From Armatimonadota bacterium (GTDB lineage Bacteria; Armatimonadota; SYMT01): a stretch of 64,000 bases of DNA. A program made the translations under genes and the position numbers. Below the pieces are notes generated by a model that saw only the letters and a program-made list of their open reading frames with translations, was not told where the DNA came from and made no database searches. The stretch covers positions 81,039 through 145,038 of the forward strand of contig JBKBRF010000012.1 of the NCBI GenBank assembly GCA_046292385.1, in the 5' to 3' direction. Below, in pieces: positions 1,001 to 37,662 of the stretch (position 1 is its first letter; every line of letters begins with the position of its first letter).

Positions 1001-1030
1001 GGCAGGTTATGCCACGTGGCATAACCTGCC
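1001..1030. repeat. Dispersed palindrome copy 1 (30-bp perfect palindrome; core TTATGCCACGTGGCATAA at 1007-1024)
   Basis: GGCAGGTTATGCCACGTGGCATAACCTGCC equals its own reverse complement. Confidence 0.97.
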
Positions 1031-1291
1031 ATACCACCATACCACCCTAGAGACTTCGGGCGGCGGCGTGGCCCAGATGACACGCTCAAGCGCGGGCACG
1101 ATCGGAAATATCTCGCTGGTTGAAGCGAAACACCGGGCAACCGGGGCCAAGAACTCCCGAGGCGGTGGAGACGACCACCTTACGAAAAGAGGGGCGTGGG
1201 AGGGCAGGGCGAGGCGCGCGAGTACTGGACTGTAACAGCAGCCGGAGAATGACCGGCCCGCCCGAAGAAACCGCTCGCTCGGTAGGAGGAA

Positions 1292-1320
1292 TAGACACGC
1301 AGGGCTAACCCACCTATAAT
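1292..1320 (+). promoter_or_regulatory. Sigma70-type promoter
   Basis: TAGACA-17 bp-TATAAT upstream of the 1403-3581 gene run. Confidence 0.7.
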
Positions 1321-1402
1321 CAAACAAACTTTGTTCCTGCTGTGGCCGCATGGGCCCCGTTCCGCGACGCTCTGCGCGTCCGGACGGGGCTTTTGGTGTC
1401 TT

Positions 1403-1786
1403 ATGGCTGCCAACCAACCACCTCTGCCTCCGGGAGCCACCCGGATCTTTGCTGTCCGGGAGCACAACGGACAACCCCGGAACCGCTACGTCGGCTACCG
1501 CGTGCCGGGGGATTCGCGCGTCTGGATGTGGTCGCACCAGGACAAGGACCACCATCCGTGCGAGCGCGCGGACCTGGTCGGCGAAGACCTGATCGAGCCC
1601 GATACGTTGCTCGGCGCTGCGATGGACGCCGACGACGCCCAGTCGCGGCGCGAATTCCTCAAGTGGCTGCGGGCCAACACGCCGAGCCTCTTCACCATTT
1701 TCTTGAGTGGCCGCATGGGCCCGGACCAGTCGGAGTCTGCCGATGAGCGCAGAGACCGCGGCCCGGGCTCACCGCCCGCGGCCTGA
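1403..1786 (+). CDS. Hypothetical phage protein
   Basis: ORF downstream of the promoter; GC-rich third positions. Confidence 0.6.
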   Translation: MAANQPPLPPGATRIFAVREHNGQPRNRYVGYRVPGDSRVWMWSHQDKDHHPCERADLVGEDLIEPDTLLGAAMDADDAQSRREFLKWLRANTPSLFTIFLSGRMGPDQSESADERRDRGPGSPPAA

Positions 1787-2351
1787 GAGCGATCAGCAGC
1801 CGGCGCGCTCGCGGAAGGAGTTCCTGGCCGCGCCCGGCCGGAACCACAATCCGCATACCGGGATGCCGTTGCGCCCCGGCCAGCGTCTCCCCACCGAGGG
1901 CGAGGAGCAGGAGTCGTTTGACGACTGGCTCTACCACCGCCGCTCTGCCCCCTTCCCGGATGATGGCCGGTGGGAGATCACCGAGAGGCATGCCTACCGT
2001 TGGCTCTCCCACCGCTTTGAGGGGCTCCTCGACAATCCCCGTCGCGCTGCGGGGCTGACCCGCCAGGGCGTCGACGCCAATGACCTCCTCCTCCTGATTC
2101 TGGACCTCCACGCCTACGCCGCGCTGCGCGAGCGAGCCTGGCAGGCGGGCCTGCCGACGCCGTGCCTCGTGGAATACCTCCGCGCGGACCGGGAGCGGTG
2201 GGGCTGGTGGGAGAAGGTGTTCCGGCTGGTGCGCGCGATGAACCGGGACGAGGATCCGGCGGTGATCGACGCGCTGCGTGAGGATCTTCGCGCGGCCGGC
2301 GGAAACCCGGATGCGGATGACGAGGGAGAGGGCAATGAAGGGGGGCTATGA
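1743..2351 (+). CDS. Hypothetical phage protein
   Basis: ORF overlapping both neighbours, operon-like; start uncertain. Confidence 0.6.
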   Translation: MSAETAARAHRPRPESDQQPARSRKEFLAAPGRNHNPHTGMPLRPGQRLPTEGEEQESFDDWLYHRRSAPFPDDGRWEITERHAYRWLSHRFEGLLDNPRRAAGLTRQGVDANDLLLLILDLHAYAALRERAWQAGLPTPCLVEYLRADRERWGWWEKVFRLVRAMNRDEDPAVIDALREDLRAAGGNPDADDEGEGNEGGL

Positions 2352-2952
2352 CCCCTCGGCGGCGGCCGCGGCGGCCACCAAGATCAAGTGGTTGAAGCGG
2401 GAGGACTGGGACGGGCTGGTAGACGCGGCGGCGGAAGAGCGGCGGGAGGAGCTGCTCGGGATCCGGGACCAGGCGATCATCGCCCTCGGGCTCTCCTCCG
2501 GGCTTCGCGTCTCGGAGCTGTGCAACCTCAACGTCGAAGACCTCGACCTGAAGGACCGGCGGCTGACTGTCCGGCGTGGGAAGGGCGGCAAGCCGCGGCC
2601 GGGGCGCTTCTCCGAAGACGCGCGCGACCTGATCGAGATCTGGTTGCAGGTGCGGCCGACGCAGCCGGAAGACACCGCCCGGGAACAGCGCGGACCGCTC
2701 TGGATCTCCCGCAAGGGTGGGCGGCTGGCGGCTCGGACGGTCCGGGAGATGATGCAGAAGGCCGGCGAGAAGGCGGCCCTCGGCCACGTCCACCCGCACA
2801 TGCTCCGCCACTCCTGCGCGACGGAGCTCCTCCGGAAGACCAACAACCTCCGCCAGGTGCAGGTGCACTTGGGGCACGCCCGGATCACCACCACCGAGAT
2901 CTACGCGCACGTGATCAACAACGACCTAGAGAAGGCGGTAGAGGACCTGTAG
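2335..2952 (+). CDS. Short tyrosine recombinase (catalytic domain only; XerC/FimB-like)
   Basis: SGLRVSEL (R), KGGK (K), HMLRHSCAT (HxxR), LGHARITTTEIY (H, Y); ~205 aa. Confidence 0.92.
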   Translation: MKGGYDPSAAAAAATKIKWLKREDWDGLVDAAAEERREELLGIRDQAIIALGLSSGLRVSELCNLNVEDLDLKDRRLTVRRGKGGKPRPGRFSEDARDLIEIWLQVRPTQPEDTAREQRGPLWISRKGGRLAARTVREMMQKAGEKAALGHVHPHMLRHSCATELLRKTNNLRQVQVHLGHARITTTEIYAHVINNDLEKAVEDL

Positions 2953-2964
2953 AGAGGGAGACCC

Positions 2965-3210
2965 ATGAACTACGAGATCAATTTGGAGGTAACTGTCACC
3001 GCGGATGAGATCCGAGGAATGGTCGCGGAGAAGGTCAACAACTCCCGGATGCATCGCCTACCGTTTACGGTCAAGCCGGAGGACGTGGACGTTCAGCCGG
3101 ACGGCACAGCCCTCATCCGGTGCCAGCGGCAGGCGGCTGATAACAGGACTTGGTGGGCCGAGAACAACCAGCTCACCGAGGAAGAGAAGCAGAAGCGAGG
3201 GACGCAGTGA
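2965..3210 (+). CDS. Hypothetical phage protein
   Basis: ATG after GAGGGAG; operonic with the recombinase. Confidence 0.65.
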   Translation: MNYEINLEVTVTADEIRGMVAEKVNNSRMHRLPFTVKPEDVDVQPDGTALIRCQRQAADNRTWWAENNQLTEEEKQKRGTQ

Positions 3211-3581
3211 GCACGATCCATCGACAGCACCGCAAACAGCGCACCTTCTTCCGGCTTCTGGCGCGCGAGCAGCGCCGGTGCTTCCAGTCGCTACACGACC
3301 GCGGAGAACTGAAGGTGCCCGACGAGCCCGCCCGACCGGATGAGCAGGACGACTGGGCCGACGAGGAGGATGACGATCCAGGGCAGCAGGGCTGCCTGCG
3401 CTGCGGCGCCCCGAGCTGGTACGTCCGCACAGGCTACTGCTCAGACGAGTGCCTTGGAGCGGATGCCGCCGAGATCGAAGATGAGGGGCGCTGCGGTCAC
3501 TGCGGCCGGCCCGGACCCTACGGAGAGCCTTGCTTCCGACCGCTGGACGGGCAGCTCGAAGAGTGCGGGCAGTTCATCTGA
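3207..3581 (+). CDS. Small acidic Cys-rich (CxxC) protein, possible zinc finger
   Basis: GTGA overlap with upstream stop; CLRC, CSDEC, CGHC motifs. Confidence 0.6.
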   Translation: MSTIHRQHRKQRTFFRLLAREQRRCFQSLHDRGELKVPDEPARPDEQDDWADEEDDDPGQQGCLRCGAPSWYVRTGYCSDECLGADAAEIEDEGRCGHCGRPGPYGEPCFRPLDGQLEECGQFI

Positions 3582-3589
3582 ATTCCGTA

Positions 3590-3627
3590 GCTGAACCGCC
3601 GAATTCCAATGAATTCGGCGGTTCAGC
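3590..3627. terminator. Perfect 17-bp stem hairpin between convergent genes
   Basis: GCTGAACCGCCGAATTC-caat-GAATTCGGCGGTTCAGC. Confidence 0.7.
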
Positions 3628-3702
3628 GGTCACGGTTCGCAGGTTCGGCGCCAGGGAGGCTATTCCGCAAGTTCAATGTGGGGGGGTTAACGCGAGTGCT
3701 CC

Positions 3703-5163
3703 TTACTTCACGATTGTCTGGGAGCTGTTCGGCACGTATCCCCAAACGTCGCGCCGTCCATCTGGAAGTTCTACGGTGAATCGTAACATCCCGCCCTCCC
3801 ATTTAAGAACACCAACCTGAGGGGCGACCACTCGAAGACTCTGCGCCTTGTTCCGCGTCAAACGTGAGAACAAGGCGCGGAAATCATTGATGGCAACCTG
3901 ATTCATCAATCGTCGGTTCACTTCCGGAGAAAGGCGGGAGATCTCTAGACGCGCCCAGGTTGACCCAGCCACTCGCGCTGCATCCTCCAGAACCATGGCA
4001 TGAGTTCTAGCATAGCGCGCTGTCATCAATCCCACGTTACGCTCTTCGACTCGGCATATTAGGTCAAGCGACGGTGGAACGCAGGCTTGCATCTTTCGGT
4101 AGAGATCGACCGGGTCTTTGGCGGGACCAGGCCGTTCACGACCAAGAACCCAGTCACCGCTCCGATCCGGTCGTAGTGTCCAACCGTAGAGCGCACCGAT
4201 CCCGAGCGCCAGATCATCGGCTCTCATGCTCGGAGCCGGAGAAAGGTATACCCGTCGCTTCGACGCATAGTCGGGAGTGCGAACGTCCCGCCCGACCCGG
4301 TTCTTCAACACTGCCGCAATCGCATCCACTCGGATCTCTCCCTGGGGGAGTTTCAACTCCGTGTGAAAAGCCTTCGGCGCCTGCGGAAGATCAGCTAATG
4401 CCTCACCTCGGAATGAGACTGGTCTGACGTCCCACGGTGGAGGTGGAGGGGCTTGGAAGTTCGACTTGGCGTTATCCCGCGGATACGCGATCCAGTAGAC
4501 CATGGGCTCTCGAAGGGTGGGGTCGACTTCGAGTTCCGCGCCTTTCCAACCAACGAAGAGCTTCTCCATCCGCTCGCTATAGGTCTCCTGGCTGGAGAAG
4601 ACCTGCGCGGCATTTACGGTAAGCCAAAGCCGACGTTGCTCATCCGGGAGGGCAGCGAGTGGTAGCCCCTCGGGTCGCCGCATCGCGGCACGCTGCTCCA
4701 CTGTCAGGGAGTCCCAGAACCGATTCTGGTTCTCGGGGTAGAGCGGCGACAGGGGATATGGCGCGAACGGGTGAACCAATCGATGCAGATCTGCTCCTGT
4801 CTGTTGTAACTCCTCCAGCTCTAAACTGAGCGTCTCGCGTTCATCCCCATAACGACGATGAAACAGGAGAACACGACTACCCTGACGTCCGTAAAGGTCG
4901 AAATCGGTGGCCAGTGCGTCGAGTGCGCGCGAGACGGGTACGTCCTCAAGCGCCATTTCCAAGCGGTGTTCGACCTGCGGGATCTCCGCGATGACACTAA
5001 GACCTGTAGCCTGTGCTACGGTGTCCAACACCTCGGCGAGCTTCGCTCCGCGGGAGAGCGTCACCTTCGGTTCCATCGAGGCCTTGGGACCGTCTTGGGC
5101 GGCGGATGCGGCTACCCCGAGGGTGGCTACGAGCGCAAGAATTAACCTAATCTGCATGTTCAC
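3703..5163 (-). CDS. Exported hypothetical protein with N-terminal STN/secretin-N-like segment (moron)
   Basis: Signal peptide ending ASAAQ; LAEVLDTVAQATGLSVI...DVPVSRALDALA resembles STN domains; opposite strand, AT-richer. Confidence 0.65.
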   Translation of the reverse strand: MNMQIRLILALVATLGVAASAAQDGPKASMEPKVTLSRGAKLAEVLDTVAQATGLSVIAEIPQVEHRLEMALEDVPVSRALDALATDFDLYGRQGSRVLLFHRRYGDERETLSLELEELQQTGADLHRLVHPFAPYPLSPLYPENQNRFWDSLTVEQRAAMRRPEGLPLAALPDEQRRLWLTVNAAQVFSSQETYSERMEKLFVGWKGAELEVDPTLREPMVYWIAYPRDNAKSNFQAPPPPPWDVRPVSFRGEALADLPQAPKAFHTELKLPQGEIRVDAIAAVLKNRVGRDVRTPDYASKRRVYLSPAPSMRADDLALGIGALYGWTLRPDRSGDWVLGRERPGPAKDPVDLYRKMQACVPPSLDLICRVEERNVGLMTARYARTHAMVLEDAARVAGSTWARLEISRLSPEVNRRLMNQVAINDFRALFSRLTRNKAQSLRVVAPQVGVLKWEGGMLRFTVELPDGRRDVWGYVPNSSQTIVK

Positions 5164-5219
5164 CCCTGATGACGCGAGCGACGGTCTCCCGTCGCTCGCC
5201 GGAGCAGGTAACTTCGGGA

Positions 5220-5864
5220 CTAGTTGCCGATCTGGATCTGTGCCCAGGCCACGGCTGATCCATGGAATCCCGTACCCATGGAATCAGCAACGGTGAACAC
5301 CATGATCGACCCCTTCACCTCCATCGTCATGTTGATAGAAGCAGACTTCTGATCGCTGCGGAAGTTGGTGTTTGCCGGGCCGGGATCATAGGCCGTCCAT
5401 GTAGGGAATTGTCCTGTTACCGAGTTGTTGGCGACGGCGCTCACGTTCACGGCTACAGTGCCCGCTGAAGCCGTTGCCTCCGCCTCACCTCTCGAGAATG
5501 AGTTTCCGTTCGCAGCGGTAGATCCGGCGGTTGCCTCCGCTCGGCAATCTCCCTTTAACAGCACCGAAAGGGCGGCAGGATTCCCATTCTTGGTGTAAAC
5601 TCTCTTATAGCTAAACTCCTGGTGAGCGTGCGTAAAGCTGTTCTGGCCGTTACTGCTAGCTGAGTTCGCACTAGCTTGGGCGTAATAGCTATTACTAGCA
5701 TCGCTTTTACCGCTACCCTCCGTTGAGTGAGAGATGTGGTCCACATCGGAGTCTAACTCGAGGTTTCCCACGGTCCAGCTATCTGCGAGTGCGGGAGATG
5801 CAGCCATGATCCCGACGCAGATGCAGCCGACCGGGACTGTCCGAGTGCGCCAGTTCCTTCTCAT
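5220..5864 (-). CDS. Secreted Ser/Ala/Asn/Thr-rich protein (moron)
   Basis: Signal peptide ending SPALA; RBS AGGAG; small-residue, beta-prone composition. Confidence 0.65.
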   Translation of the reverse strand: MRRNWRTRTVPVGCICVGIMAASPALADSWTVGNLELDSDVDHISHSTEGSGKSDASNSYYAQASANSASSNGQNSFTHAHQEFSYKRVYTKNGNPAALSVLLKGDCRAEATAGSTAANGNSFSRGEAEATASAGTVAVNVSAVANNSVTGQFPTWTAYDPGPANTNFRSDQKSASINMTMEVKGSIMVFTVADSMGTGFHGSAVAWAQIQIGN

Positions 5865-6250
5865 ACGGATTCTCCTTAGCGAGCAGTGTCGGCCGAGCGA
5901 GCGACGGAACGCCCACAGGCCAGGTAATTGAGGCGAGATAGAATCGAGGGGATCAGGACAGGATAGCTAGGCCCCACGACCCTACCGGATCTAGTTTCTT
6001 CCTAAAACGTAAGGACCCTTTGCTTGAGTAGTAGCGGTATTGTTGAGAAAATCGCAAGAAGGTGTGAGAGCCGCATGAAAGCGGCGGTTGGCGCTCACCC
6101 CCCGTGGTAGTGTGAGATTAGAAGAGTGAGATCCGATCTCACCACAATGCGTGAGAGCTGAATACACCACGAAGGGGCCGGCGACGGCCCCGCAAAGAAG
6201 AGAGGGGGCTCCCGAAAGGGGGTCCCCTCTCGCACTTTCTGGGGGCCGCC

Positions 6251-6502
6251 ATGGACAGAGCCGAGGAGCCGAGGAAGCCGCTGTCCTGGTGGGACATCTC
6301 GATCTCCGGACGGAGGGTTCCGGCTCAGGAGGACGTCACAGTCAATGCCGTCGTTCGCCGCAGCCGCTTCCGCTTCGGGGCGCGCCTGCCCTGGAAATGG
6401 GCGCTCGTTATCGGGCTCCTGATCTTGGGCTCCCATCCGTGGGGCCGATGGGTGCTCGAGCAGGCGCAGTGGTTGGCCCGACAGATGGGGGTGGCGATCT
6501 AA
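6251..6502 (+). CDS. Small single-TM protein, lysis-region (holin candidate)
   Basis: Hydrophobic WALVIGLLILGS stretch; upstream of the endolysin candidate. Confidence 0.5.
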   Translation: MDRAEEPRKPLSWWDISISGRRVPAQEDVTVNAVVRRSRFRFGARLPWKWALVIGLLILGSHPWGRWVLEQAQWLARQMGVAI

Positions 6503-6765
6503 TGGGAGTTTTCGGCGTCTTCAAAGGCAAGCTCTGGGACCTCGTCAAGGGAAACGTCTGGGAGATCCTACGCTCGGTGGTCTCCAAGGCCGCGGCCGAA
6601 GAGGTCGCAGACGGCATCCAGGCACACTTCCAGCGCATCGGTCCGGAAGGCCGCGAGCGACTGGCTGCGAAGCTGGTCAAGATCGCGGACCTGCTCCGGG
6701 CCGACAAGAGCGGCAAAGCGGCGGCGCAGGCCTCCGCGACACTGGTTGGCGAGCTGGAGCTATGA
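6502..6765 (+). CDS. Hypothetical phage protein
   Basis: TAATG stop/start overlap; starts MGVFGVFKG. Confidence 0.6.
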   Translation: MGVFGVFKGKLWDLVKGNVWEILRSVVSKAAAEEVADGIQAHFQRIGPEGRERLAAKLVKIADLLRADKSGKAAAQASATLVGELEL

Positions 6766-7046
6766 CCTGCGCGCTTGACGCGCGCGACCAGACACCAGAT
6801 GAAGTCCGGCTTCGGGGAGCGATCCTCGAGCCGGGCTTTTTCAATGTCGGCCGCGGCGTAACCCTCGACCTTACGGAGTGCACCCTCAGCCTCCGCGCGG
6901 TGGGCGGCCTGGTCCGCCTGGTCCGGGAAGAGCGGCGCGTCCAGATCCGGATGCCCTACACCTGCCAGCCGCAGCAAGCGATCGAGACGGTCTTCGGACC
7001 GCACCACCTCCACTACCTCGGCGGCACTGACTGGGAGCTCTCCTGA
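6762..7046 (+). CDS. Hypothetical protein, weakly STAS-like
   Basis: ATGA overlap; VTLDLTECTLSLRAVGGLV resembles the STAS beta-alpha motif. Confidence 0.5.
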   Translation: MTCALDARDQTPDEVRLRGAILEPGFFNVGRGVTLDLTECTLSLRAVGGLVRLVREERRVQIRMPYTCQPQQAIETVFGPHHLHYLGGTDWELS

Positions 7047-7882
7047 TGTTCAAGCTTCGGGACCTAGACCTCGACCGGATCTGCGAGCTCAACGAGTTCC
7101 TCGTCCCCCAGGACGGCCTGGCCATGGTCGGTATCCGCGGCTGTTTGCCGGCGAAGCCCGGCGCCTGGGGCCGTGAGGTGGAGCTGGAGGCCGCGAAGGT
7201 CGACTACACCCACCCCCGCTGCACCATCATCCTCTGGCAGCCCCGCTTCGGCTCCCTCGCGGCCTTCCCGGGCAGCACCGTCCCGCACATCAGCGAGATC
7301 AAGAAGGCGGCGGCGAACGGCGGCAGAGGCGCCAATTGCCTGATGACGGGCTGCTACAGCTATGTCCGCGGGTGGCACCGCTACGGATCCCGGACCGCGC
7401 ACCAGGCATTTCGGCAGGATGGAGTCCGGCCGCTGCGGCGGACCAGGGATGACCTCACCTATTCCCTGGCCGACCCGGTGGAGATCTCGAACCCGGGCGA
7501 CAACCTCCACGCCGGGTGGTGTGACAGCGTCGATTCCGAATACTACGGCTCGGCCGGCTGCCAAGTAGTGGTAGGCCGCCCCACCCGTGGCCACTGGCGG
7601 ACCTTCTACGCCGAGGCGGTGGCGAAGGGCCAGACCGCTTTCACCTATCTGCTGCTGACCTGCCGGGACATCAAGTTCCCCCAGCCGGTGGTGCGCTTCG
7701 GCAGCCGCGGCCCGCGGACGAAGGCGCTGCAAGAGGCGATGATCCGGGGCGGCCGGCTGAAGGGACCCGCGGACGGCGTTTGCGGGCCCAACACGTTCTT
7801 GTCGCTGGTCCAGGCGCAGGGTGACCGGGACACTGGCGTCTTCGGGGTCGACCTCGCGCGACAGATCGGAGCCCGCTGGTGA
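7046..7882 (+). CDS. Putative endolysin: L,D-transpeptidase-like catalytic motif plus C-terminal peptidoglycan-binding domain
   Basis: NLH-x14-SAGCQV; C-terminal GSRGPRTKALQEAM...ADGVCGPNT matches the PG_binding_1 pattern. Confidence 0.75.
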   Translation: MFKLRDLDLDRICELNEFLVPQDGLAMVGIRGCLPAKPGAWGREVELEAAKVDYTHPRCTIILWQPRFGSLAAFPGSTVPHISEIKKAAANGGRGANCLMTGCYSYVRGWHRYGSRTAHQAFRQDGVRPLRRTRDDLTYSLADPVEISNPGDNLHAGWCDSVDSEYYGSAGCQVVVGRPTRGHWRTFYAEAVAKGQTAFTYLLLTCRDIKFPQPVVRFGSRGPRTKALQEAMIRGGRLKGPADGVCGPNTFLSLVQAQGDRDTGVFGVDLARQIGARW

Positions 7883-8229
7883 CCTGGCTGGATCACTTTT
7901 GGAAGCGGCTGCAGTGGCGGATCCACCGTCGCCGGCCGGGGGCCAAGCCCCACAAGCCCGTGCGGCCCCTGGAGACGGCGCTGGCCTGGAAGGAGCTGTG
8001 CTGATGCGTCTCGGTTGGATTGGAAACGGCATACTCGCCGCACTGGCGATGATCGGCCTGGCCGCGCGGACTCCGCAGGGATCGGCGCGGCCCGAGCGCT
8101 CGCCGTACATCGCCGCCTCTTCCGGGCGTGAGCTGGTCTTCGGCCGGCGTCTCCCGGACCCGCCGCGGCAGGGCCGACCGTTCCGCCGCTGTCACCGGAC
8201 CGGGCTCAAGCTCCGCGCGCTGTAGGGCG

Positions 8230-8253
8230 CGATTATGCCACGTGGCATAATCG
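8230..8253. repeat. Dispersed palindrome copy 2 (24-bp perfect; core 8233-8250)
   Basis: CGATTATGCCACGTGGCATAATCG. Confidence 0.97.
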
Positions 8254-8266
8254 GCGGAGATCTCCG

Positions 8267-8902
8267 ATGGAAGACCTGGCGCGGCCCCAGCCGCCCGTGG
8301 ACCTGCTCGCCGCGGATGAGGAGACGATCCTCTTCGCGCCGGCGCACGAGCTGGCGGAGTGGGTCGAGGCCACGTTCCTGGACGAGAGCGGCCTACTCCA
8401 CAACTGGGAGCACGAGCACCTCCAGGATGCCACCGTCGCCTTCCTCTGGACGAACACGCGAAACGAGAAGGGTGGCCGGCGCATCGTCGGCACCGCGGAA
8501 ATCCCCGCGAGCCAGGGGGCCACGCGCTGGGTGAAGGCGAGGCTCGAGTATCAACTCTGGAACTGGTTCGGCGAGCTGCCGGACTTCCTCATCACCATCG
8601 ACGCGAGCTACTGGGCGGCGATCTCCGACGCGGCCGCGTGTGCCCTGATTGAGCACGAGCTCTACCACTGCTCGTTCAAGGTGGATCGCGACGGCGACCC
8701 CCGCACCGATCCGGATGGTGAGCTGATCTGGTCGCTGAAGGCGCACGACGTCGAGGAATTCATTGGCGTGGTCCGCCGCTACGGCCCTGGGGCTGCTTCG
8801 GGCGGGGTGGCCGCGCTGGTAGAGGCGGCGCAGCACCGGCCGCTTTTCTCCGCGGAGGAGATCGCCGAGGCGTGTAGCGGCTGCGGTGTCTGCGCCCGCT
8901 GA
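8267..8902 (+). CDS. Putative phage metallopeptidase
   Basis: HELYH motif plus downstream HDVEEF; sits before TerS. Confidence 0.85.
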   Translation: MEDLARPQPPVDLLAADEETILFAPAHELAEWVEATFLDESGLLHNWEHEHLQDATVAFLWTNTRNEKGGRRIVGTAEIPASQGATRWVKARLEYQLWNWFGELPDFLITIDASYWAAISDAAACALIEHELYHCSFKVDRDGDPRTDPDGELIWSLKAHDVEEFIGVVRRYGPGAASGGVAALVEAAQHRPLFSAEEIAEACSGCGVCAR

Positions 8903-8920
8903 CTTTGATGGGCTTTGACC

Positions 8921-29824: not shown

Positions 29825-30027
29825 GACGGGACCCGGTAGCGGCCCAGGCGCAGGAGACGGCGCGGCAGGCTCGGGTGGCGGTCGGCTCCACGGCGGAGGT
29901 CACGCGCGCGAGCGCCGGCACGGAAGCGCTCGGGGCTGCGGGCGCGAGCGACCCGGTGACGGGTAAATGGCAGGGATACGGGCTGCTGGGAGTGACCGCT
30001 CTCAGCAGTTTCCGGGTGAGGGGATAA
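29821..30027 (+). CDS. Small hypothetical tail-region protein
   Basis: ATGA overlap with the hub gene. Confidence 0.5.
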   Translation: MRRDPVAAQAQETARQARVAVGSTAEVTRASAGTEALGAAGASDPVTGKWQGYGLLGVTALSSFRVRG

Positions 30028-30030
30028 CGA

Positions 30031-30165
30031 ATGCGAACATACGTTGTGACCGGGTTCGATCGCCACACGGGACAGCGCCGAACCATTACCGTGCGTGCAT
30101 CTTCTGCCAGAGAGGCGCGCACGCTGGCGTACGACCAGCTCACCTATCCCGAAGTCCAGGAGTAG
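30031..30165 (+). CDS. 44-aa hypothetical protein (below ORF track cut-off)
   Basis: MRTYVVTGFDRHTGQRRTITVRASSAREARTLAYDQLTYPEVQE fills the gap between neighbours. Confidence 0.5.
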   Translation: MRTYVVTGFDRHTGQRRTITVRASSAREARTLAYDQLTYPEVQE

Positions 30166-30168
30166 GCG

Positions 30169-30855
30169 ATGTCAACCACGATCCTCGCACTGAAGAACGA
30201 CTACGCCGACCTCGATCCGGTGGCGGCCGCGGAGCTGAACGCGCGCGCGGATGCGCTGGAGGCGGTCTTCGCGAGCCGCCTGGTCAAGAGCGTCGCCGGA
30301 GGCGTCGAGGTCACCCTCACGGATGAGGAGGCGGTAGCGTTGGTGCTCGAGCTCTCAGGGCTCCTCACCGCCAGCATCAACGTCGTGCTTCCTCTGTGGG
30401 CCGGCCGGCGCTGGGTGATCCGGAACGACACCACCGGCGCCTTTGAAGTGACGGTCAAGACGCCCGCCGGCAGCGGGATCGTGGTGACCCAGGGCTACCG
30501 GGCCGAGGTGTTCTGCGACGGCACTGACGTGGTGCGGGCCGCGCCAGACGTGAGCAACGCCGCGGCGCTGGTGATCGGGGGCGGGACGCCGATCGCGAAG
30601 TATCTCTCCGCCACGAAGGTCTGGGATCCGCCGTCGATCGCGGACGGCGCTATCACCTCGACCACCGTGACCGTCACCGGCGCCGCGGTGGGAGACCTGG
30701 CCGTCGCCGGCCTCACCACCCTGACGGCCGGACTCGCGCTGCTCTCCGCCCACGTGACCGCCGCCGACACCGTGACCGTCGTGCTGCTCAACAAGACGGG
30801 CGGGGCGCTGGACGTGGCGAGCGGGACCCTGCGCGTCGGGGTGTGGAAGCACTAA
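30169..30855 (+). CDS. Tail fibre / receptor-binding-like protein
   Basis: WVIRNDTTGAFEVTVKT, WDPPSIADG...TVTVTGAAVGD; last tail gene. Confidence 0.7.
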   Translation: MSTTILALKNDYADLDPVAAAELNARADALEAVFASRLVKSVAGGVEVTLTDEEAVALVLELSGLLTASINVVLPLWAGRRWVIRNDTTGAFEVTVKTPAGSGIVVTQGYRAEVFCDGTDVVRAAPDVSNAAALVIGGGTPIAKYLSATKVWDPPSIADGAITSTTVTVTGAAVGDLAVAGLTTLTAGLALLSAHVTAADTVTVVLLNKTGGALDVASGTLRVGVWKH

Positions 30856-30860
30856 CCCGA

Positions 30861-30878
30861 TTATGCCACGTGGCATAA
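30861..30878. repeat. Dispersed palindrome copy 4
   Basis: TTATGCCACGTGGCATAA 5 bp after the last tail gene stop, between convergent genes. Confidence 0.97.
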
Positions 30879-30929
30879 CCGTCGCTGAACCGCTAGCGGA
30901 GAGTCCTGGTTGTACCGTGAGGGCCTGGT

Positions 30930-31718
30930 CTACGGTCGGCGTGTCGACACTGCCTTGAGATTTGGATGGTGCGAGCCGGCTGGCGAGGCGGAAGCGACCA
31001 CCGAGACGCCTTGATCTACCAGCCCCAGGCGCAACCCGCAGAGGAAGAGGTCTCGTTGACCGTCCAAGCGGAGCTTTCGCCGGATTGCAGTGCGATGCGA
31101 CTCCACCGTCCGCGGGCTCAGATAGAGTGTCTCCGCGATTCTGGCGGAAGTCCAACCCTGTAGCGCGAGCGCCATCACCTCCCGCTCCCGAGGGGATAGG
31201 CGCTGATACGCAGCGTGAAGCCACTCGCTGTCAAGTTCTGGGCGAACAGCCGGCGAAACGGCGTGTAGGGAGTCACCGCTCGCGGGCTCGTCGCCAGCCG
31301 CAGTGTCGCTGCGGATGAATCGCAGCAGCTGCGCCGATGCCACATCCATGGGAAGGCGAAGGAGCCGGGACGAGCAACGGGGGTCCGGCAGCACGGTCGC
31401 TGAAAGCGCCGGATCGAGCGCGAGAATCCGCGCGCAGGGCCGGAATTCGTGCAGTCGTCTGACGTAACTCTCTTCGGGCTCCGGCAGTAGCCGGGTGTCC
31501 ACGATAATCCCACTAGCGTTGCGCTCTCGCGCGAGTGACAGCAGAGTGCCCGCATCCTCCGCTTCCCCGGCCAGGAGAAACTCTCGCAAGAGCGAGCGCA
31601 GTCCCAAGCGCAGTAACTCCGACGCACTGGCGAGCAGCACGGATGGCAGCGCAGGTTTCGCAGGACACGGCGGTATGGCCATCGGCTCGCTTCGGGAACG
31701 GAGTTCTCCCGCTCTCAC
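30930..31718 (-). CDS. LuxR/NarL-family regulator with degenerate receiver domain (start uncertain)
   Basis: LSPREREV...IAETLYLSPRTVESHRTAIRRKL HTH; receiver acidic pocket replaced by ASAS. Confidence 0.8.
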   Translation of the reverse strand: MRAGELRSRSEPMAIPPCPAKPALPSVLLASASELLRLGLRSLLREFLLAGEAEDAGTLLSLARERNASGIIVDTRLLPEPEESYVRRLHEFRPCARILALDPALSATVLPDPRCSSRLLRLPMDVASAQLLRFIRSDTAAGDEPASGDSLHAVSPAVRPELDSEWLHAAYQRLSPREREVMALALQGWTSARIAETLYLSPRTVESHRTAIRRKLRLDGQRDLFLCGLRLGLVDQGVSVVASASPAGSHHPNLKAVSTRRP

Positions 31719-31905
31719 CTGCTAAGTGTCAGGCGTGTTAGGAAGCTATCGCCCTCACCCAGAATTACATCCTTCGATTGAGGTCAGTACGCGCCGGTAC
31801 GGATTTTTCATCGCGGCCGATAGTTCAAGCGCCCAGGAGGCACTCAAGGTACTAGAAGCACCTTACTCTGCCACTAGGGATTCACCCGACGGGCGAGGCA
31901 ACCTC

Positions 31906-32508
31906 TTGATTGGCCTCCGGCGAAAACTAGAGCGGTTTCGGGAACCTGACCCTACGCCCGCACCTCGCGAACCGCTGGGTGAAGAGGTCGCGGCACGCCT
32001 TCTGGATCTCGTCTATCGGTACGTGTCTCGGCGCGTCGTCAATCGAGAGGACGTGGCGGACCTCACGGGGGAGATCCTGCTCCACGTGACAGCCCAGTTC
32101 CCGAACTTCCGGGGTGAAGGCAGAATGGAAAGCTGGCTCTTTCGCATTGCCGAACGGAGGCTGTCACGGAGCCGGCGACGGATGCAGCGATGGGCATCCG
32201 TCGCGGTGGAGGCGCTCCTGCCGGAACACGAGGATACGGTGGCCGATCCGGCGGGCGAGGATCCGGCCGCGATAGTGCAGCGCCGAGAGCGGATCTGTCA
32301 TACCATCAGGGTGGTACAATCATTACCGCCCGACCAACGGGAAGCACTGTTGCTGATGTATGCAGAAGGTCTGTCGCAGGAGGAGATCGGCCAGGTGATG
32401 GGCCGCTCCACTGAGGCCGTCAACAGCCTGCTGCAGCGGGCGAGGAAGGCGGCTCGGAAGCTGGGTGGGAGTTACTACCTAACGGGGGAACCCGGAGGGC
32501 CTCGATGA
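31906..32508 (+). CDS. ECF sigma-70 factor (start uncertain)
   Basis: DVADLTGE, SWLFRIA, LPPDQREAL, LSQEEIG, VNSLLQRAR. Confidence 0.85.
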   Translation: MIGLRRKLERFREPDPTPAPREPLGEEVAARLLDLVYRYVSRRVVNREDVADLTGEILLHVTAQFPNFRGEGRMESWLFRIAERRLSRSRRRMQRWASVAVEALLPEHEDTVADPAGEDPAAIVQRRERICHTIRVVQSLPPDQREALLLMYAEGLSQEEIGQVMGRSTEAVNSLLQRARKAARKLGGSYYLTGEPGGPR

Positions 32509-33353
32509 AGCACGAGGAGTCTCAACCCAGCGAGCGGCCGGACCGGGGAGCCCCCGGGGACCCGTGGGAGGCAGCGTTCGGCAATGCAGTCCGCGAAGCC
32601 TTTCCGGGTCGTTCCCCAGCCCCCGAAGAGAAGGCGCGGATTCTTCAGCGCGTGAGACAACGCGCCGCGCGTCGGTCCCAGCGCCGTGCCACCTGGCTCC
32701 CTCCGCTTCGCTTCCGGCTGTCCTTCGCTGCCGTCACCGCGCTGCTACTCATCCTCGCGTTCGTGGTGCTGCAGCCACGAGAAGTAGACGCTGGCTTGCT
32801 GGATCGCGTTGTAGCAGCGATGGCACAGTTCCGCTCCGGCCACCTGGTGTTTCTGCGGCTCAACGACCAGGGCCAATGGGAGTACGAACGCCAGTTGTGG
32901 TACCGCGAAGGCTCCTGGCGGACAGAGATGGACGGGGATACCTGGATCTACACGCCCCGAGCGACCTGGCGACAGAAGCTGCCGGACCCACGCTGGGTGC
33001 GTCGTCCCGAGAAATCGAACTTCGGTCGTGACCTGAGTGGGTTAGCTCCCACCGTCCTGGGAGGCGACTTCGAGAAGTGGGGCCGGGAAACGCAAATCCG
33101 GTACCTAGAAGCTCCGGATGGTCCGCCCGGCTCCTTCCAGGTAGTCGTCGAGCCGGAAGGTGAGAAGGAGCGGATCCTGCTCGCCATCGATCAGGCCACG
33201 AGCGTCCCGCGCTACTTCGAATTCCACAGCCTGCGCGGAGGCCGGTGGCACATCACGCACCGCGTGCAGATCGAGCTCGGGCTGCCCTTGTCTCCCGCCC
33301 TATTCGCCCCGGGAGCTCCCGCTCCGGAGCAGTCCCCCGCACGCTTGGACTGA
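32505..33353 (+). CDS. Putative membrane anti-sigma factor with periplasmic LolA-like domain
   Basis: ATGA overlap with the ECF; one TM then a beta-rich domain (IDQATSVP). Confidence 0.7.
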   Translation: MKHEESQPSERPDRGAPGDPWEAAFGNAVREAFPGRSPAPEEKARILQRVRQRAARRSQRRATWLPPLRFRLSFAAVTALLLILAFVVLQPREVDAGLLDRVVAAMAQFRSGHLVFLRLNDQGQWEYERQLWYREGSWRTEMDGDTWIYTPRATWRQKLPDPRWVRRPEKSNFGRDLSGLAPTVLGGDFEKWGRETQIRYLEAPDGPPGSFQVVVEPEGEKERILLAIDQATSVPRYFEFHSLRGGRWHITHRVQIELGLPLSPALFAPGAPAPEQSPARLD

Positions 33354-33556
33354 TACCAGAAACCAGGTCCCCTACCGCTCCTGCGGATCCCAGCCGGTCT
33401 TCGCCTCTACGGTGGCCGAGAACACGCCTACGATAGGTGTGCTCTCGGCCATCGTTGCTCATGTCGGTGCCGAGCCGAGCGCCGCCAAGCTCGCACCAGC
33501 CCACTCCACTCCGCCTCCGGGTGGCCTACCTCACGGCCACCCGGAGGAGGAAACCG

Positions 33557-34132
33557 ATGGTTGTGGGTTCACCTGAGTGGCAGGTGGCACTGAGAGCTGC
33601 AAAGGATGGTTGTCGATACGGCGCCGAGCGTCTGGCGGCAGTTCTCCTGGTGTGGGCGTACCGAGAGCTTCGGAAAGGAAGCTGGCGGGAGCCTGAGGAC
33701 ATTGTGGGTGAGTTCGTGGCGAGGATGCTCCGCGAGCAGGCCCGGGATCTGCCGGATGGAGATTGTCGACGCACGGAGGCCTACCTACGACGCGCGCTAC
33801 GCAGGTTGCTCGTCGATCGCTGGCGAGAGCAGCGACGCTGGCGCGCGAATGAGTTGCTCCTCTCCGAGCTGTCGGCGGATGACGACTCGTCCTACCAACC
33901 CTGGACGATTGCCGAGGCCGATCCGCTCGACCAGGTTCTCCGCGCAGAGGAGCGTCAAACCCTCCAGCGAGCGCTGGAGCACCTGGCTGACCAGAACCGG
34001 ATGCTGATCCGCTTGACCCTCGACGGCTGGACGCCGACGGAACTTGCCGGGCGGACCCGGTTGACGCCGAACACGGTCCGGCAGCGGCTCTGGTCGATCC
34101 GCCGCCAACTCCGACGTCTGCTCCAGGAGTAG
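33557..34132 (+). CDS. Second ECF sigma-70 factor
   Basis: EPEDIV, AYLRRALRRLLVD, region 4 GWTPTELA...TVRQRL; RBS GGAGGAGG. Confidence 0.8.
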   Translation: MVVGSPEWQVALRAAKDGCRYGAERLAAVLLVWAYRELRKGSWREPEDIVGEFVARMLREQARDLPDGDCRRTEAYLRRALRRLLVDRWREQRRWRANELLLSELSADDDSSYQPWTIAEADPLDQVLRAEERQTLQRALEHLADQNRMLIRLTLDGWTPTELAGRTRLTPNTVRQRLWSIRRQLRRLLQE

Positions 34133-34272
34133 CGGCCGCGAGAGCTCGCGCCGGGGTAGCCGGAAAGGGCTCTCGGACAGAGCCTAACGCGGCCCCCTAA
34201 GGCTCCGTCTCTTCCCCCTGACGGTAGCCGCTTGGGAAACCTCCCGAGCGTTAGCTGACTGCCAGGGGGAAG

Positions 34273-35850
34273 ATGATGCAGACCGCGCGGAAGCGCAACA
34301 CGACCAGGGCCCGATGGATCGGAGTGGAAGATGCGGTCCGCGTCGCCCTCGCCGGCGTGCTCCTCACCGCCGTCGTCGGGAAGCTCCTCGACTTCGACGG
34401 CTTTGTCCCGGTGGTGAACCGCCTGGAGCTGGTGCCCGCCACCTGGAGCGCGGCCGCCGCGGCACTCCTACTGGTCCTGGAAACCGTGGCCGCCACCCTG
34501 CTGCTGACCCGCAGCGCCGCGCTGGCGGGACCTCTACTCACCTTGCTCTTAGCTGGAGGCTTCACGCAGGTCACGCTTCGATTCCTGCTCGAAGGGCGGC
34601 CGAACACCTGTGGCTGCTTCGGGCTACTCCTGCAATTACCACCGCTCGCCGTGCTCCTGCTTGATCTCACTCTGGGGCTGGGGGCCTTCTTTCTGCTGCG
34701 AAAAGGGTGGCGCGCCCGCCGTGTGGCTCTCACTGCGCAGCCGGAGATCGGGAGTTCAGCAGGAGTCCCGTCGGGAGCTCCACTGAGTTCTTTCCGCTCC
34801 GGGACTCTTTGGTGCGGCTGCTATCTCCTGGTGATGGTCGCCGGGTTGCAGGCGGGCTTTCACGCGCAGTGGCAGCATGCTGATGACGGCGAGACCCGGG
34901 AGATCAATCTCCGACTCGGCGATCGGGCGCCGCTGTTCCGTCTCCGAACGCTCGGCGGTCGAGTGATCACCCCGGCCTCTCTCGCCGGAGAACCGGCGCT
35001 CGTGGTGTTCGTCCAGGACGGCTGCACCCCCTGCGAAAGCGAGCTGCGGGAGTTGGCGACCCTCGCCTCCGAGTTGCGCGGCCACGTGCGCCCGCTGGTC
35101 GTGCTCACCGGTCGACCACTCTGGGGCAGTGCCGAAGCCGCGGCGCGCCGTTTCGCTCGCCGCCTCGCCCTTCCCTTCCCTGTGGCCTTGGATCCGGACC
35201 GCACGGCCCTAGGGCGTTACGCCGACCGCCCCGCGCGCACTCCCTTCAGTGTGCTGCTGAACTCCGCGGGCCGCGTGAGCTATGTCCAGGATGGCCGTGA
35301 GAGCGGCGAGATGAGCCTGAAGCGGGATCTCCAGGCCCTCCTCGCTGATGAGCCGTATGGGGCGCCGGTTCTCGCCTCTCGTTCTCCGCACGTTGGCCGG
35401 CCCGCACCAGACGGGGTGCTCTCCGGCCCCGCCGGACCGGTGCGGCTCTCCACGCTCTGGCAGCAAGGCCCCCTGCTACTGACCTTCCTGCTCCCCGACT
35501 GCCCGGGTTGCCGAGAGCGGGTCGCGCTGCTAGAGCGTGCCGCCGGTGCCAACCAGGGTTTGCGGTCAATCTACGTCTACCCGAGTGCCGCGGCGGCGGC
35601 CGCCGCGCGAAGGAGGCTGCGGACTCAGGCAGTTGTGGCGAGCGATCCGAGCCGGGAGGTCCACACTCGGTTCGCGGTGTGGAATGCCCCAACCTCCGTC
35701 CTAATCGAGCGCGGACGGATCCAGCTGGTCACCGGTGAGCGCGCCGGTGACCGGGAACTGCTGCGAGCTCTGCGCTCTGTGCCCTCGGCCGTGATCGGCC
35801 TTTCGACCACGGACCTCTCTGCCCGAAGGGCGAACGCGAAAGCCAGGTAA
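34273..35850 (+). CDS. MauE/DoxX membrane domain fused to two thioredoxin-like (redoxin) domains
   Basis: TM region with CGCFG; GDRAPLF...CTPC; GRPAPD...CPGC; cis-Pro motifs TP/APT. Confidence 0.85.
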   Translation: MMQTARKRNTTRARWIGVEDAVRVALAGVLLTAVVGKLLDFDGFVPVVNRLELVPATWSAAAAALLLVLETVAATLLLTRSAALAGPLLTLLLAGGFTQVTLRFLLEGRPNTCGCFGLLLQLPPLAVLLLDLTLGLGAFFLLRKGWRARRVALTAQPEIGSSAGVPSGAPLSSFRSGTLWCGCYLLVMVAGLQAGFHAQWQHADDGETREINLRLGDRAPLFRLRTLGGRVITPASLAGEPALVVFVQDGCTPCESELRELATLASELRGHVRPLVVLTGRPLWGSAEAAARRFARRLALPFPVALDPDRTALGRYADRPARTPFSVLLNSAGRVSYVQDGRESGEMSLKRDLQALLADEPYGAPVLASRSPHVGRPAPDGVLSGPAGPVRLSTLWQQGPLLLTFLLPDCPGCRERVALLERAAGANQGLRSIYVYPSAAAAAAARRRLRTQAVVASDPSREVHTRFAVWNAPTSVLIERGRIQLVTGERAGDRELLRALRSVPSAVIGLSTTDLSARRANAKAR

Positions 35851-35854
35851 CTGA

Positions 35855-36244
35855 ATGCGAAATCAATCCACTCTCCACTCCCGAGGCGAGCGCACGAGCC
35901 GTCCGTTACTGTGGCTCGTTCTCTCTCTCTTTCTCGCTGCCACCGGCCCCGGGACACTCGAGCTCGCCTGGGGGGATTCAGAAAACTACTGCCCGGGCTC
36001 TCCATGGAACTGCTATCCGCAGACCACCTGCGGAGAGCTGACGTGGTGCGAGACGACCGGCGGCGACTGGTGCAATACGACGTACGCCCACTACGCCAAG
36101 AAGAAGTACCTGATGGTGAAACGCTGCACGAATCTTTCCGGCGGAGAGCTCACCTGCACCTCTTGCGGCCCGAAGCAAGACAATGGCTGCTGTAAGGATC
36201 TGTCCGCAGAGCCGTCGTGCCCGAACGGGACACAGTGCCCGTAG
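35855..36244 (+). CDS. Secreted cysteine-rich small protein (12 Cys in predicted mature part)
   Basis: Hydrophobic signal LLWLVLSLFLAAT; 12 Cys counted after LAWG. Confidence 0.75.
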   Translation: MRNQSTLHSRGERTSRPLLWLVLSLFLAATGPGTLELAWGDSENYCPGSPWNCYPQTTCGELTWCETTGGDWCNTTYAHYAKKKYLMVKRCTNLSGGELTCTSCGPKQDNGCCKDLSAEPSCPNGTQCP

Positions 36245-36272
36245 CGGGAGACAGGCTGCACGGAGGCTTCTC

Positions 36273-36968
36273 ATGGTGTTCAAGTCGACTCTTCGTTGGA
36301 TGTGTTCTCGGGAAACCCGGAGCGCCGCCCGGTCACGGCCCGGTTTTACCCTGCTGGAGGTGCTGGTCGTGTCGGGAGTCCTCCTGATTCTGTTGGGCCT
36401 ATTGGTTCCCGTCGCCGCCAGCGCCCGCGCTCGCGCACAGGAAGGCGCATGCGCCGGGCAACTTCGACAGATCGGAAAGGCTATGCGGCTCTATCTGGAT
36501 GACCACGATGGGCTGCGGCCACCGCGGCTGACCGATCTGATCCCGAACCACTTGGCCGAGCGGCGCCTCCTGCAGTGCCCGCGAGATCCTTGGCTGGGCC
36601 GTGGCGGCTGGGCCTGGTCCGCCTGGGGACGCCTGACCACCCCACCCCAGCGGTGGCCGGCCCCTGTTTCTTACGGCTACTTCTGGAGCCCGCTCCCGCA
36701 CGACCGCCTCTGGCGCGAGGCGCAACAGGCCCCGGGGCGACCCGGCTACCTCGTCTGCGTGCTGCATGGAGAGTCGGGCGAGAGCTCTCCTGACGGGGAC
36801 GGAGAGGCGCCGTACTATCGCGGGCGCGTGCTGCGGCTCTGCTTCGACGGCAGTGTCGTCACCCGCGAGTTCCCCGGCCGGGGCTTTAACGCCTGGCGGC
36901 TGATGACCGACCAGGCAGTTCCAGCGGCGCCACGTGCGGCCGGGACCAGGAGTGAGGGGATCAGATGA
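36273..36968 (+). CDS. Prepilin-type N-terminal cleavage/methylation (pseudopilin) protein
   Basis: GFTLLEVLVV, ARARAQ..C..QLRQIG, C-terminal CFDGSV. Confidence 0.85.
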   Translation: MVFKSTLRWMCSRETRSAARSRPGFTLLEVLVVSGVLLILLGLLVPVAASARARAQEGACAGQLRQIGKAMRLYLDDHDGLRPPRLTDLIPNHLAERRLLQCPRDPWLGRGGWAWSAWGRLTTPPQRWPAPVSYGYFWSPLPHDRLWREAQQAPGRPGYLVCVLHGESGESSPDGDGEAPYYRGRVLRLCFDGSVVTREFPGRGFNAWRLMTDQAVPAAPRAAGTRSEGIR

Positions 36969-37390
36969 CGACCGTACTACGAGTCGGGATGGGCTGCCTG
37001 CTGGGAGCGCTAGTGGGGATGGTGGGATTCGTGAGTGTGTCCGTGGTGTTCTTCGCGCTCGGGGTCTACTCCCATCACCAACTCACACTCGGCGCCGGCC
37101 TGGGTCTCATCTGGGGAGCGTTGGCAGGGCCCTGGAGTGTTTGGCGACGCCGCCCGCTTGCTCGGGGCGTGCTCGGGCCGGCGCTGGTGTCTGTCGGCGT
37201 CTTCACCGGGTATCTGCTTTGGCTGGGCTCGCAGCGCAGTGTCTTTACGTCCTGGGAGCAGTTCCGCAGCGGGCTTCTCGCGGGGAGCGCGTTCGTGCTC
37301 CTTGCGAGTGGGCTATCAGCGATGGCCTGCCTCCGGATCTGGGACTTACTCCCCTCGGACCTGGCGAACTCTTGGGAACCGCGAGGCTGA
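36965..37390 (+). CDS. Four-TM membrane protein
   Basis: ATGA overlap; four hydrophobic segments. Confidence 0.65.
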   Translation: MTTVLRVGMGCLLGALVGMVGFVSVSVVFFALGVYSHHQLTLGAGLGLIWGALAGPWSVWRRRPLARGVLGPALVSVGVFTGYLLWLGSQRSVFTSWEQFRSGLLAGSAFVLLASGLSAMACLRIWDLLPSDLANSWEPRG

Positions 37391-37644
37391 TCGTGACTCG
37401 AGGCCAGTCCAATACCTGGCGATGAGATCTCGGGCGGCGGGGACTGCTCCCCCGACTGGGCGCCGGCCACCGCTGATGTGCGGGCCGTACTCGAGGTGAC
37501 GCTGTAATCGTGCGCCCGGACCGCTGAATCGTGCACCTGCCGCGCGATTCGGTGCACGATCCGCCGTACGAATGGCAGCGGCCCCGGCGGACACCCGGGG
37601 CCGCGATCGCGCCTCGTCACAAGCGCGGACAATACCCACGGCGA

Positions 37645-37662
37645 TTATGCCACGTGGCATAA
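37645..37662. repeat. Dispersed palindrome copy 5
   Basis: TTATGCCACGTGGCATAA 7 bp past the stop of the minus-strand XRE-peptidase gene, between convergent genes. Confidence 0.97.

Follow-up and report, generated by a model that had tools for sequence, protein, structure and literature searches.

Clamps of the ParB type, which bind cytidine triphosphate (CTP), serve in the partition of chromosomes and plasmids, and they include the plasmid regulator KorB and BisD, the activator of an integrative and conjugative element (ICE). In Bacillus a parS site, the target of ParB in ParABS partition systems, lies within the parB gene itself, spo0J. KorB of the IncP-1 plasmid RK2 is described as a ParB-family CTP clamp with a single type of palindromic site, OB, which is dispersed over the element and private to it; KorB acts on promoters at a distance, the clamp-locking partners KorA and TrbA switch it from a sliding clamp to a repressor, and with its ParA partner IncC it has a role in plasmid partition (PMC11790492). 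BisD is presented in PMC12409273 as an orphan ParB-like CTP clamp of the chromosome-integrated ICEclc, with parS-like palindromes inside or beside genes of the element; it has an activator domain and a partner, BisC. Its two loading sites, bisS, are 2 kb from each other, and from them it spreads across some 50 kb and turns on promoters of the element when ICEclc wakes. In phages, a 2025 survey of the ParB fold describes about 1% of parB homologues as prophage-encoded, mostly orphan and without an assigned function (PMC12704722), and a 2026 paper describes ParB-like activators of phage thymidine dioxygenases that have no DNA-binding domain (PMC13229309). Here we analysed a 64-kb stretch from the genome of a soil bacterium of the Armatimonadota (“the window”; positions 81039-145038 of contig JBKBRF010000012.1, called C12 below) that carries the right two thirds of a tailed prophage, phi1. 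An 18-bp palindrome, TTATGCCACGTGGCATAA, is dispersed over phi1 and recurs inside its parB gene, and going by sequence it is very probable that these palindromes are the sites of the phage's own ParB.

The palindrome and the ParB of prophage phi1

A preliminary description of the window had reported five identical palindromes and none in the approximately 23 kb of host DNA. All five are exact (at 1007, 8233, 16235, 30861 and 37645); matches appeared in none of 100 dinucleotide-preserving shuffles of the window, and a scan of the window allowing up to three mismatches gave nothing beyond these five. The total had to be raised when the whole assembly was scanned (7,043,135 bases in 91 contigs), as there are seven exact copies genome-wide, all on C12 and all within phi1, two of them upstream of the window in the left arm of the prophage. 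The host DNA of the window is indeed free of the 18-mer, as is the rest of the 7.04-Mb assembly outside the prophage, and six other genomes of the same family have no copy. The 16-bp core TATGCCACGTGGCATA occurs eight times in the assembly and is outnumbered by only one other perfect 16-bp palindrome of real bases. This is a repeat with 27 copies, TGCGCCCCGGGGCGCA, located mostly within about 100 bp of contig ends (for example C2:47, C12:41, C22:62 and C37:54) and probably belonging to a repeated element at which the assembly is broken.

phi1 spans C12:62194-122006 (59.8 kb) and is integrated in tRNA-Leu(CAA), which is adjoined at the left end by a tyrosine integrase. A direct repeat of the tRNA gene at both ends gives the attachment (att) borders of the prophage and places all seven palindromes inside it.

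C12:62194-62248, attL, left copy of a direct repeat (at least 55 bp) that comes from the 3' part of tRNA-Leu(CAA)
C12:64128, palindrome copy 1, close to where the leftward operon ends and 550 nt upstream of the start of the integrase gene
L005:12717-14525, parB of phi1, 602-codon frame, in the left arm outside the window
C12:74374 (L005:13336-13353), palindrome copy 2, in parB, codons 207-212 of the 602-codon frame
window 1..40968, right two thirds of phi1, the remaining left arm lying outside the window
window 1007..1024 (C12:82045), palindrome copy 3, 15 nt past the stop of the pentapeptide-repeat gene 258-992, where the rightward early operon ends
window 8233..8250 (C12:89271), palindrome copy 4, 8 nt past the stop of the open reading frame (ORF) 7821-8225
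window 16235..16252 (C12:97273), palindrome copy 5, 37 nt past the major capsid gene 14984-16198
window 30861..30878 (C12:111899), palindrome copy 6, 6 nt past the last tail-module gene 30169-30855
window 37645..37662 (C12:118683), palindrome copy 7, 8 nt from the stop of the minus-strand XRE/M78 peptidase gene 37670-38764, where the cargo block ends
window 40914..40968, plus strand, attR, right copy of the same direct repeat

The intergenic position first ascribed to the sites fits the five window copies, which lie 6-37 nt past stop codons at the ends of gene blocks (15, 8, 37 and 6 nt past the plus-strand stops at 992, 8225, 16198 and 30855); it does not fit the copy at C12:74374, which is within the parB reading frame. 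Copy 4 sits 17 nt before a phage metallopeptidase gene, the first of the packaging module, and copy 6 is faced by a minus-strand LuxR-type gene (30930-31718). As had been noted, two sites, 30861 and 37645, stand between convergent genes. In 7/7 copies a purine directly precedes and a pyrimidine directly follows the palindrome, which extends the symmetric site to about 20 bp; beyond these bases the flanks of the seven copies are unrelated.

The preliminary description had suggested inspecting the left arm for ParA-, ParB- or KorB-like genes, and a ParB is indeed encoded there. It matches ParB_N (PF02195) with 61.5 bits and the helix-turn-helix (HTH) domain HTH_ParB (PF17762) with 53.8 bits, and passes TIGR00180 with 111.3 bits (cut-off 58.45). 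A GERRYRA motif is found at residue 277 of the 602-residue frame and a ENALRQDLNPLEEA motif likewise; these nucleotide-binding motifs of ParB_N, GxxR (GERRxRA) and ENxxRxxLxPxEE, align to the ParB structures 7bnk, 1vz0 and 6sdk. Among solved structures its best relatives are ParB-CTP clamps (ParB of Myxococcus, Thermus, Bacillus and Caulobacter) and Noc. The protein thus has the ParB_N fold and the ParB-type HTH, with a palindrome within its own locus, by which the ParB/Spo0J/Noc family is recognised. An extra small N-terminal domain, which its few relatives have as well, aligns to residues 139-193 of the frame, so that the palindrome (codons 207-212) falls in the linker before ParB_N. The clade to which phi1 ParB belongs has its own conserved C-terminus, and the KorB-family domains (PF08535 and the KorB C-terminal domain) gave no match at E <= 0.001. 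The binders first proposed, a ribbon-helix-helix (RHH) protein at 40242, the XRE-peptidase at 37670 and the recombinase at 2335, found no support.

The site and parB in unrelated DNA

Contig C45 (1-57346) is filled by a second phage-like element, phi2, with genes for a serine recombinase, an HTH_3 repressor, RecT, a primase-helicase, an SNF2 helicase, ParB and PRTRC-like proteins (PRTRC, ParB-related, ThiF-related cassette), followed by a leftward structural module. Its early module is homologous to that of phi1 (RecT, ParB at 47% identity, F-like protein, E2 and ThiF). The phi2 parB carries TTATGCCGCGCGGCATAA 36 nt past its start codon, in a place equivalent to that of the phi1 copy. The two palindromes are read in different frames, D-YAARH-N in phi2 and V-MPRGI-I in phi1, which indicates that the DNA is conserved and not the peptide. 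The palindromes of phi2 have a GCGC centre:

C45:18760, exact
C45:56723, exact
C45:42151, one mismatch
C45:30756, two mismatches, in a tail gene

The IMG/VR provirus G410 (GC 0.68) encodes a 571-residue ParB of the same architecture, with a GCGC-centre core in the linker of the ParB gene and two copies elsewhere. A natural control is given by a prophage on another contig (C40:17662-34971) whose structural module is related to that of phi1 (large terminase 73% identical, tail proteins 35-60%) and which has no parB and no repeated palindrome. A third prophage fragment (C37:46666-66665, L006), with Mu-like head genes, runs off the contig end and has four family sites of mixed centre (46749, 49638, 50194 and 64224), placed at the boundaries that follow the endolysin and precede the small terminase and the tail tube.

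The association of site and parB extends to unrelated DNA. In IMG/VR the exact 18-mer has two matches: one is inside parB, just after the HTH, of an uncultured low-GC phage unrelated to phi1 (G401, GC 0.50), and the other is intergenic, between capsid-family genes of a 4.5-kb fragment. The 16-bp core has nine matches in seven IMG/VR contigs, and one of these, again from an unrelated low-GC phage (G403, 32 kb, GC 0.48), carries three dispersed copies, one inside parB. Among contigs representing one genome per species the 18-mer was found at 13 loci. Partition or replication contexts account for 5/13 of these loci; the other eight are probably noise, since a rough chance expectation is about nine matches in 596 billion bases.

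L332 and L340, classical parA-parB operons in other phyla, 18-mer 7 and 79 nt past parB
L330, two 18-mers upstream of a parA/parB-like pair
L339, 18-mer inside parB
L329, 18-mer next to a Rep3 initiator, 6.4 kb from L332 on one contig

The palindrome is therefore inside parB in phi1, phi2, G410, G401, G403 and L339 and beside it in L332 and L340. These matches, together with the ParB of the left arm and its in-gene palindrome, bear out at the level of sequence the original proposal of a phage-specific site of the parS type. Single-copy core matches in IMG/VR within terminase or arginase genes (L315, L319 and L320) and on fragments G404-G407 were taken as chance, and a degenerate pattern, TTATGCC-N4-GGCATAA, was set aside as too degenerate to use, the matches listed including scattered singles in unrelated genomes. 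In four genes of three ParB lineages, and in two different parts of the protein, the in-gene site is read M-P-R-G-I-I (L135:10001-10018, L311:5350-5367, L339:2501-2518 and L005:13336-13353); this recurrence may be chance, as only two of the three frames are stop-free.

The recognition helix of ParB covaries with the site. In each of the eight ParBs linked to TATGCC-type sites, the residue equivalent to Caulobacter R173 is Gln and that equivalent to N178 is Arg, His or Lys. As reported by Jalal et al. (PMC7383237), N178 is conserved in ParB and Noc and Gln173 reads adenine at a variable outer position of the site, and adenine is also the base found there in the phi1-type site. In the host ParB the two equivalents are Arg and Asn (its helix reads GKSRSAVSNTLRLL), and it is encoded 1.2 kb from a canonical parS-like site. 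As a control we used 160 loci of ordinary ParBs with 29-45% identity, obtained with an alignment of ten clade members that proved to be a generic query. ATGCC-N4-GGCAT is absent from these loci (2.5 Mb), and Asn is kept in 51/59 helix matches among them. An unrelated viral contig from IMG/VR (L231, 19.4 kb) encodes a ParB that combines Gln with Asn; on it a different 16-bp-type palindrome, whose arms are TTTC and whose centre is CGCG, recurs four times at even intervals, and one copy lies 67 nt upstream of parB. A residue setting the centre was sought at the equivalents of Caulobacter 201-204, where none is shared by the ParBs of GCGC-centre sites (phi2 and G410) and yet differs in those of ACGT-centre sites.

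Relatives of the phi1 protein are few. At E <= 1e-30 two of 401 genomes of the phylum have a match, its own genome and one at 36% identity. With phi1 ParB alone as query no relative was found in the one-genome-per-species contigs; an alignment of the two paralogues gave one weak relative on a viral contig (27% identity) and one on a 1.9-kb metagenome contig (38%). Cultured phages and PLSDB plasmids contain no relative of the phi1-, G401- or L332-type ParB above about 45% identity, and no annotated model system was found.

The sites might instead form a true partition centromere, which would segregate an excised, plasmid-like or replicating phage genome through a host ParA or an unrecognised partner. 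Dispersed centromere sites occur in the linear plasmid-prophage N15. The same 18-mer at the parA-parB operons L332 and L340 and the canonical CTPase type of phi1 ParB are in favour of this reading, and yet we hold it to be unlikely. phi1 encodes an integrase and stands integrated in tRNA-Leu, and neither it nor phi2 encodes ParA: the 81 scanned phi1 ORFs have no ParA-type Pfam match, and the nine genome-wide matches to AAA_31/ParA (PF13614) are all elsewhere than on C12, C45 and C37. The dimerisation domain ParB_C (PF23552), present in the plasmid-type ParBs of L332 and L340, was not detected in the ParBs of phi1 and phi2. The N-terminal motif by which ParB contacts ParA is given as LG(K/R)GL (PMC12704722), and the pattern [LFIVM]G[KR]G[LFIVM] has no match in the four ParBs checked (P0002, P0122, P0123 and P0272).

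Spacing, transcription signals and module boundaries

Beyond the binding itself, the palindromes are probably phage-private, parS-type loading sites for an orphan ParB clamp with a role like that of KorB or BisD. ParB dimers would recognise each palindrome via the HTH, and the site-bound protein would take up CTP, close as a clamp and slide away from the site. With seven such sites, about 5-15 kb from one another, clamps would be loaded over the full length of the 59.8-kb phage genome, and no other DNA of the cell would receive them. As parB lies in the rightward early operon, the order of genes suggests that ParB is produced once phi1 has been induced or has infected a cell. From then on the clamp would regulate or organise the phage DNA across the whole genome, in the manner of KorB on RK2 and BisD on ICEclc, and the copy inside parB would give autoregulation. 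The output may be repression or activation, an organising effect on the DNA, or a recruitment of PRTRC enzymes.

The spacing of the sites is even. On circular phi1 the seven gaps measure 5.2-14.6 kb with a coefficient of variation of 0.33, and random placement was as even in 0.6% of 200,000 trials (P about 0.006), in a test that takes all positions alike and so ignores coding constraints and the scarcity of intergenic space. By eye, the gaps look similarly regular in phi2 (12.0, 11.4 and 14.6 kb), in G403 (14.4, 9.7 and 8.1 kb) and in L231 (6.1, 5.1 and 5.1 kb).

The binder could be another phage protein, such as a cI-like repressor, with the sites as roadblocks that keep the prophage silent. 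Mycobacteriophage L5 has such stoperators. The left side of phi1 consists of the integrase and a leftward operon with a cI-like HTH, followed by the rightward early operon (HTH_17, RecT, DUF5131, ParB, PRTRC F-like protein, E2-like PRTRC_B, E1-like PRTRC_ThiF and a pentapeptide-repeat protein). Further on are a short XerC-like recombinase, a possible lysis block, the packaging, head and tail genes and a cargo block, and the right end is a leftward operon with the XRE-HTH/M78 peptidase. phi1 thus has several HTH, RHH and LuxR-type genes, and the sites are in short gaps at operon ends, two of them between convergent genes, as roadblocks might be. A role as cI operator was rejected, however, since the divergent cI/HTH_17 control region (L005:5587-5977) has no copy even at up to four mismatches. 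The linkage to parB also recurs in unrelated elements without the other regulators, and it is the recognition helix of ParB that covaries with the site, so a binder other than ParB is very unlikely.

The sites might also work as RNA, in hairpins that serve as terminators, processing sites or antiterminator targets between operons. Five of the seven lie just beyond stop codons, and three are at the tips of longer hairpins built from unrelated flanks (z-scores of -4.3 to -5.4): the flanks of copy 3 lengthen the stem by 6 bp, and copy 5 folds with -40.1 kcal/mol (z -5.4). Outside phi1, the family site C37:49638 is extended in the same manner. The remaining 4/7 of the phi1 copies fold no better than expected from shuffled sequence (z -1.3 to -2.7). 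A scan for intrinsic terminators (window 1-40000 and L005) called 0/7 sites and none is followed by a U-tract, while ordinary terminators with a GC stem and a U-tract occur elsewhere in phi1 (for example 22564-22595 and 16720-16741); termination as the main function was rejected on these grounds, and the transcription roadblocks considered in the preliminary description come out as a weak option. A hairpin needs neither 18 invariant bases nor a self-complementary loop. It also leaves the in-parB copies in different frames and the sites at plasmid par operons unexplained, and we regard an RNA role as very doubtful indeed.

A last possibility is that the palindromes are points of recombination or module exchange, or a small mobile palindromic element moving between co-resident phages. 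The site family is common to three different prophage-like elements of one assembly, RecT is encoded by both phi1 and phi2, and the protein homology between phi1 and the C40 prophage ends on the right at C12:111893, 6 nt from copy 6. The other three of the four homology boundaries are 1.8-4.7 kb from a site, and the C40 relative has no copies, which leaves the module exchange raised at the outset with little behind it. No conserved flank or target duplication surrounds the copies, and neither the parB linkage nor the helix covariation is explained, making this the most improbable of the readings considered.

Several points weigh against sites of a phage clamp. No parB is found on the assembled part of the Mu-like C37 fragment despite its four family sites; the fragment may depend on the ParB of phi1 or phi2, or it may have a parB of its own on a part missing from the assembly. 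Few proteins belong to the phi1 ParB clade (12 of 1.84 billion representatives at E <= 1e-30), DNA context covers three of its members (phi1, phi2 and G410), and the eight site-linked ParBs amount to some four independent lineages. Centres of the ACGT and GCGC type are tracked by no identified residue. To these come the chance matches among the 18-mer loci, the simplicity of the spacing test and the three extended hairpins, which would fit a role in RNA. Finally, the choice between regulation, organisation and partition is guided by analogy with the described clamps.

Copies 4 and 5 flank the head and packaging block (9360..16198):

window 9360-10829, plus strand, large terminase
window 10829-13279, plus strand, portal-MuF
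window 14206-14970, plus strand, prohead protease
window 14984-16198, plus strand, capsid

The cargo block (window 30930-37390) encodes one LuxR-type and three regulators resembling sigma-70/extracytoplasmic function (ECF) factors, along with a fusion of MauE and AhpC/redoxin and a protein that carries an N-methylation motif of the prepilin type; GC at third positions is lower in this block than in the phage core. Short XerC/invertase-like tyrosine recombinases are encoded in phi1 (window 2278-2952) and phi2 (C45:55141-56103). Both are distinct from the integration recombinase and lie slightly downstream of a palindrome copy, between the early and the packaging or structural genes. A strong sigma-70-like promoter match, TAGACA-17-TATAAT, is at window 1292-1320, 268 nt past copy 3, and promoter scans gave nothing near the other palindromes. 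Upstream of the phi1 parB frame is a DUF5131 (phage Gp37/Gp68) gene (L005:11662-12720), whose last codons overlap the start of the frame; the scanned ORFs of phi2 and G410 contain no DUF5131 match.

Relation to known clamps and to the PRTRC cassette

Of the described systems, KorB is matched by phi1 in the dispersal of its operators, with seven exact and evenly spaced copies over 59.8 kb. phi1 differs in being an integrated tailed prophage with a 16-18-bp site of the parS type, without ParA, without a KorB or KorB_C domain and with no KorA-like partner identified; the ParB of L339 alone has a weak PF08535 match (20.4 bits), which is below the cut-off. The likeness to BisD is one of description, and the two bisS sites contrast with seven even sites in phi1. 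With ParABS, phi1 shares the core domains and nucleotide motifs of ParB, the 16-bp length, symmetry and CACGTG centre of parS, and the identical 18-mer at parA-parB operons in other phyla. The differences are the lack of ParA, of the ParA-contact motif and of ParB_C, a helix altered at the equivalents of residues 173 (Gln) and 178 (Arg), site arms of ATGCC where parS has GTTTC, and a spread over the whole element in place of a cluster near the origin.

The fourth related system is PRTRC (NCBIfam TIGR03734-TIGR03742). Its cassette follows directly after phi1 parB (L005:14717-17669; C12:75755-78707), inside the tailed prophage, with PRTRC_B (TIGR03737) at 138.9 bits against a cut-off of 131.45 and PRTRC_ThiF (TIGR03736) at 290.4 against 144.75. 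Two members stay under their model cut-offs, namely phi1 ParB on PRTRC_parB (TIGR03734; 66.4 bits, cut-off 278.6) and the F-like protein (43.4 bits, cut-off 58.4). G410 lacks the E2 and ThiF genes, so that the module of ParB and sites is separable from PRTRC. In titles and abstracts from 20 of the 45 papers that mention PRTRC, nothing points to a functional study. One could speculate, though we think it quite unlikely, that the ParB array is the DNA-targeting arm of PRTRC, with clamps that recruit the E2-like PRTRC_B and the E1-like ThiF to the phage chromosome. If so, proteins on phage DNA and not on host DNA would be conjugated or modified, and a ubiquitin-like “chromatin mark” would tell self from host DNA in induction or superinfection. 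The PRTRC system would thereby gain both a function and a DNA address.

The 16-bp core is absent from the main texts of the literature searched, and an array of dispersed sites like that of phi1 is not described in the main texts found on prophage, orphan or phage-encoded ParB. New here are the setting in an integrated, att-bounded tailed prophage, a site identical to a parABS centromere of other phyla, the helix signature, the linkage to PRTRC and the two to three co-resident elements with centre-variant sites. For a prophage ParB, phi1 supplies a candidate DNA target together with its full genomic map, and a helix signature that predicts the type of site. The same centromere sequence is common to plasmid parABS loci and to ParA-less phages in different phyla, and phi1 directly links a module of ParB and its sites to the uncharacterised E1/E2-like cassette of PRTRC. 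If the clamp covers the whole phage genome, it would offer a simple way for a virus to mark only its own DNA in the host cell, a plasmid-style marking of the genome that is hardly described for integrated phages.

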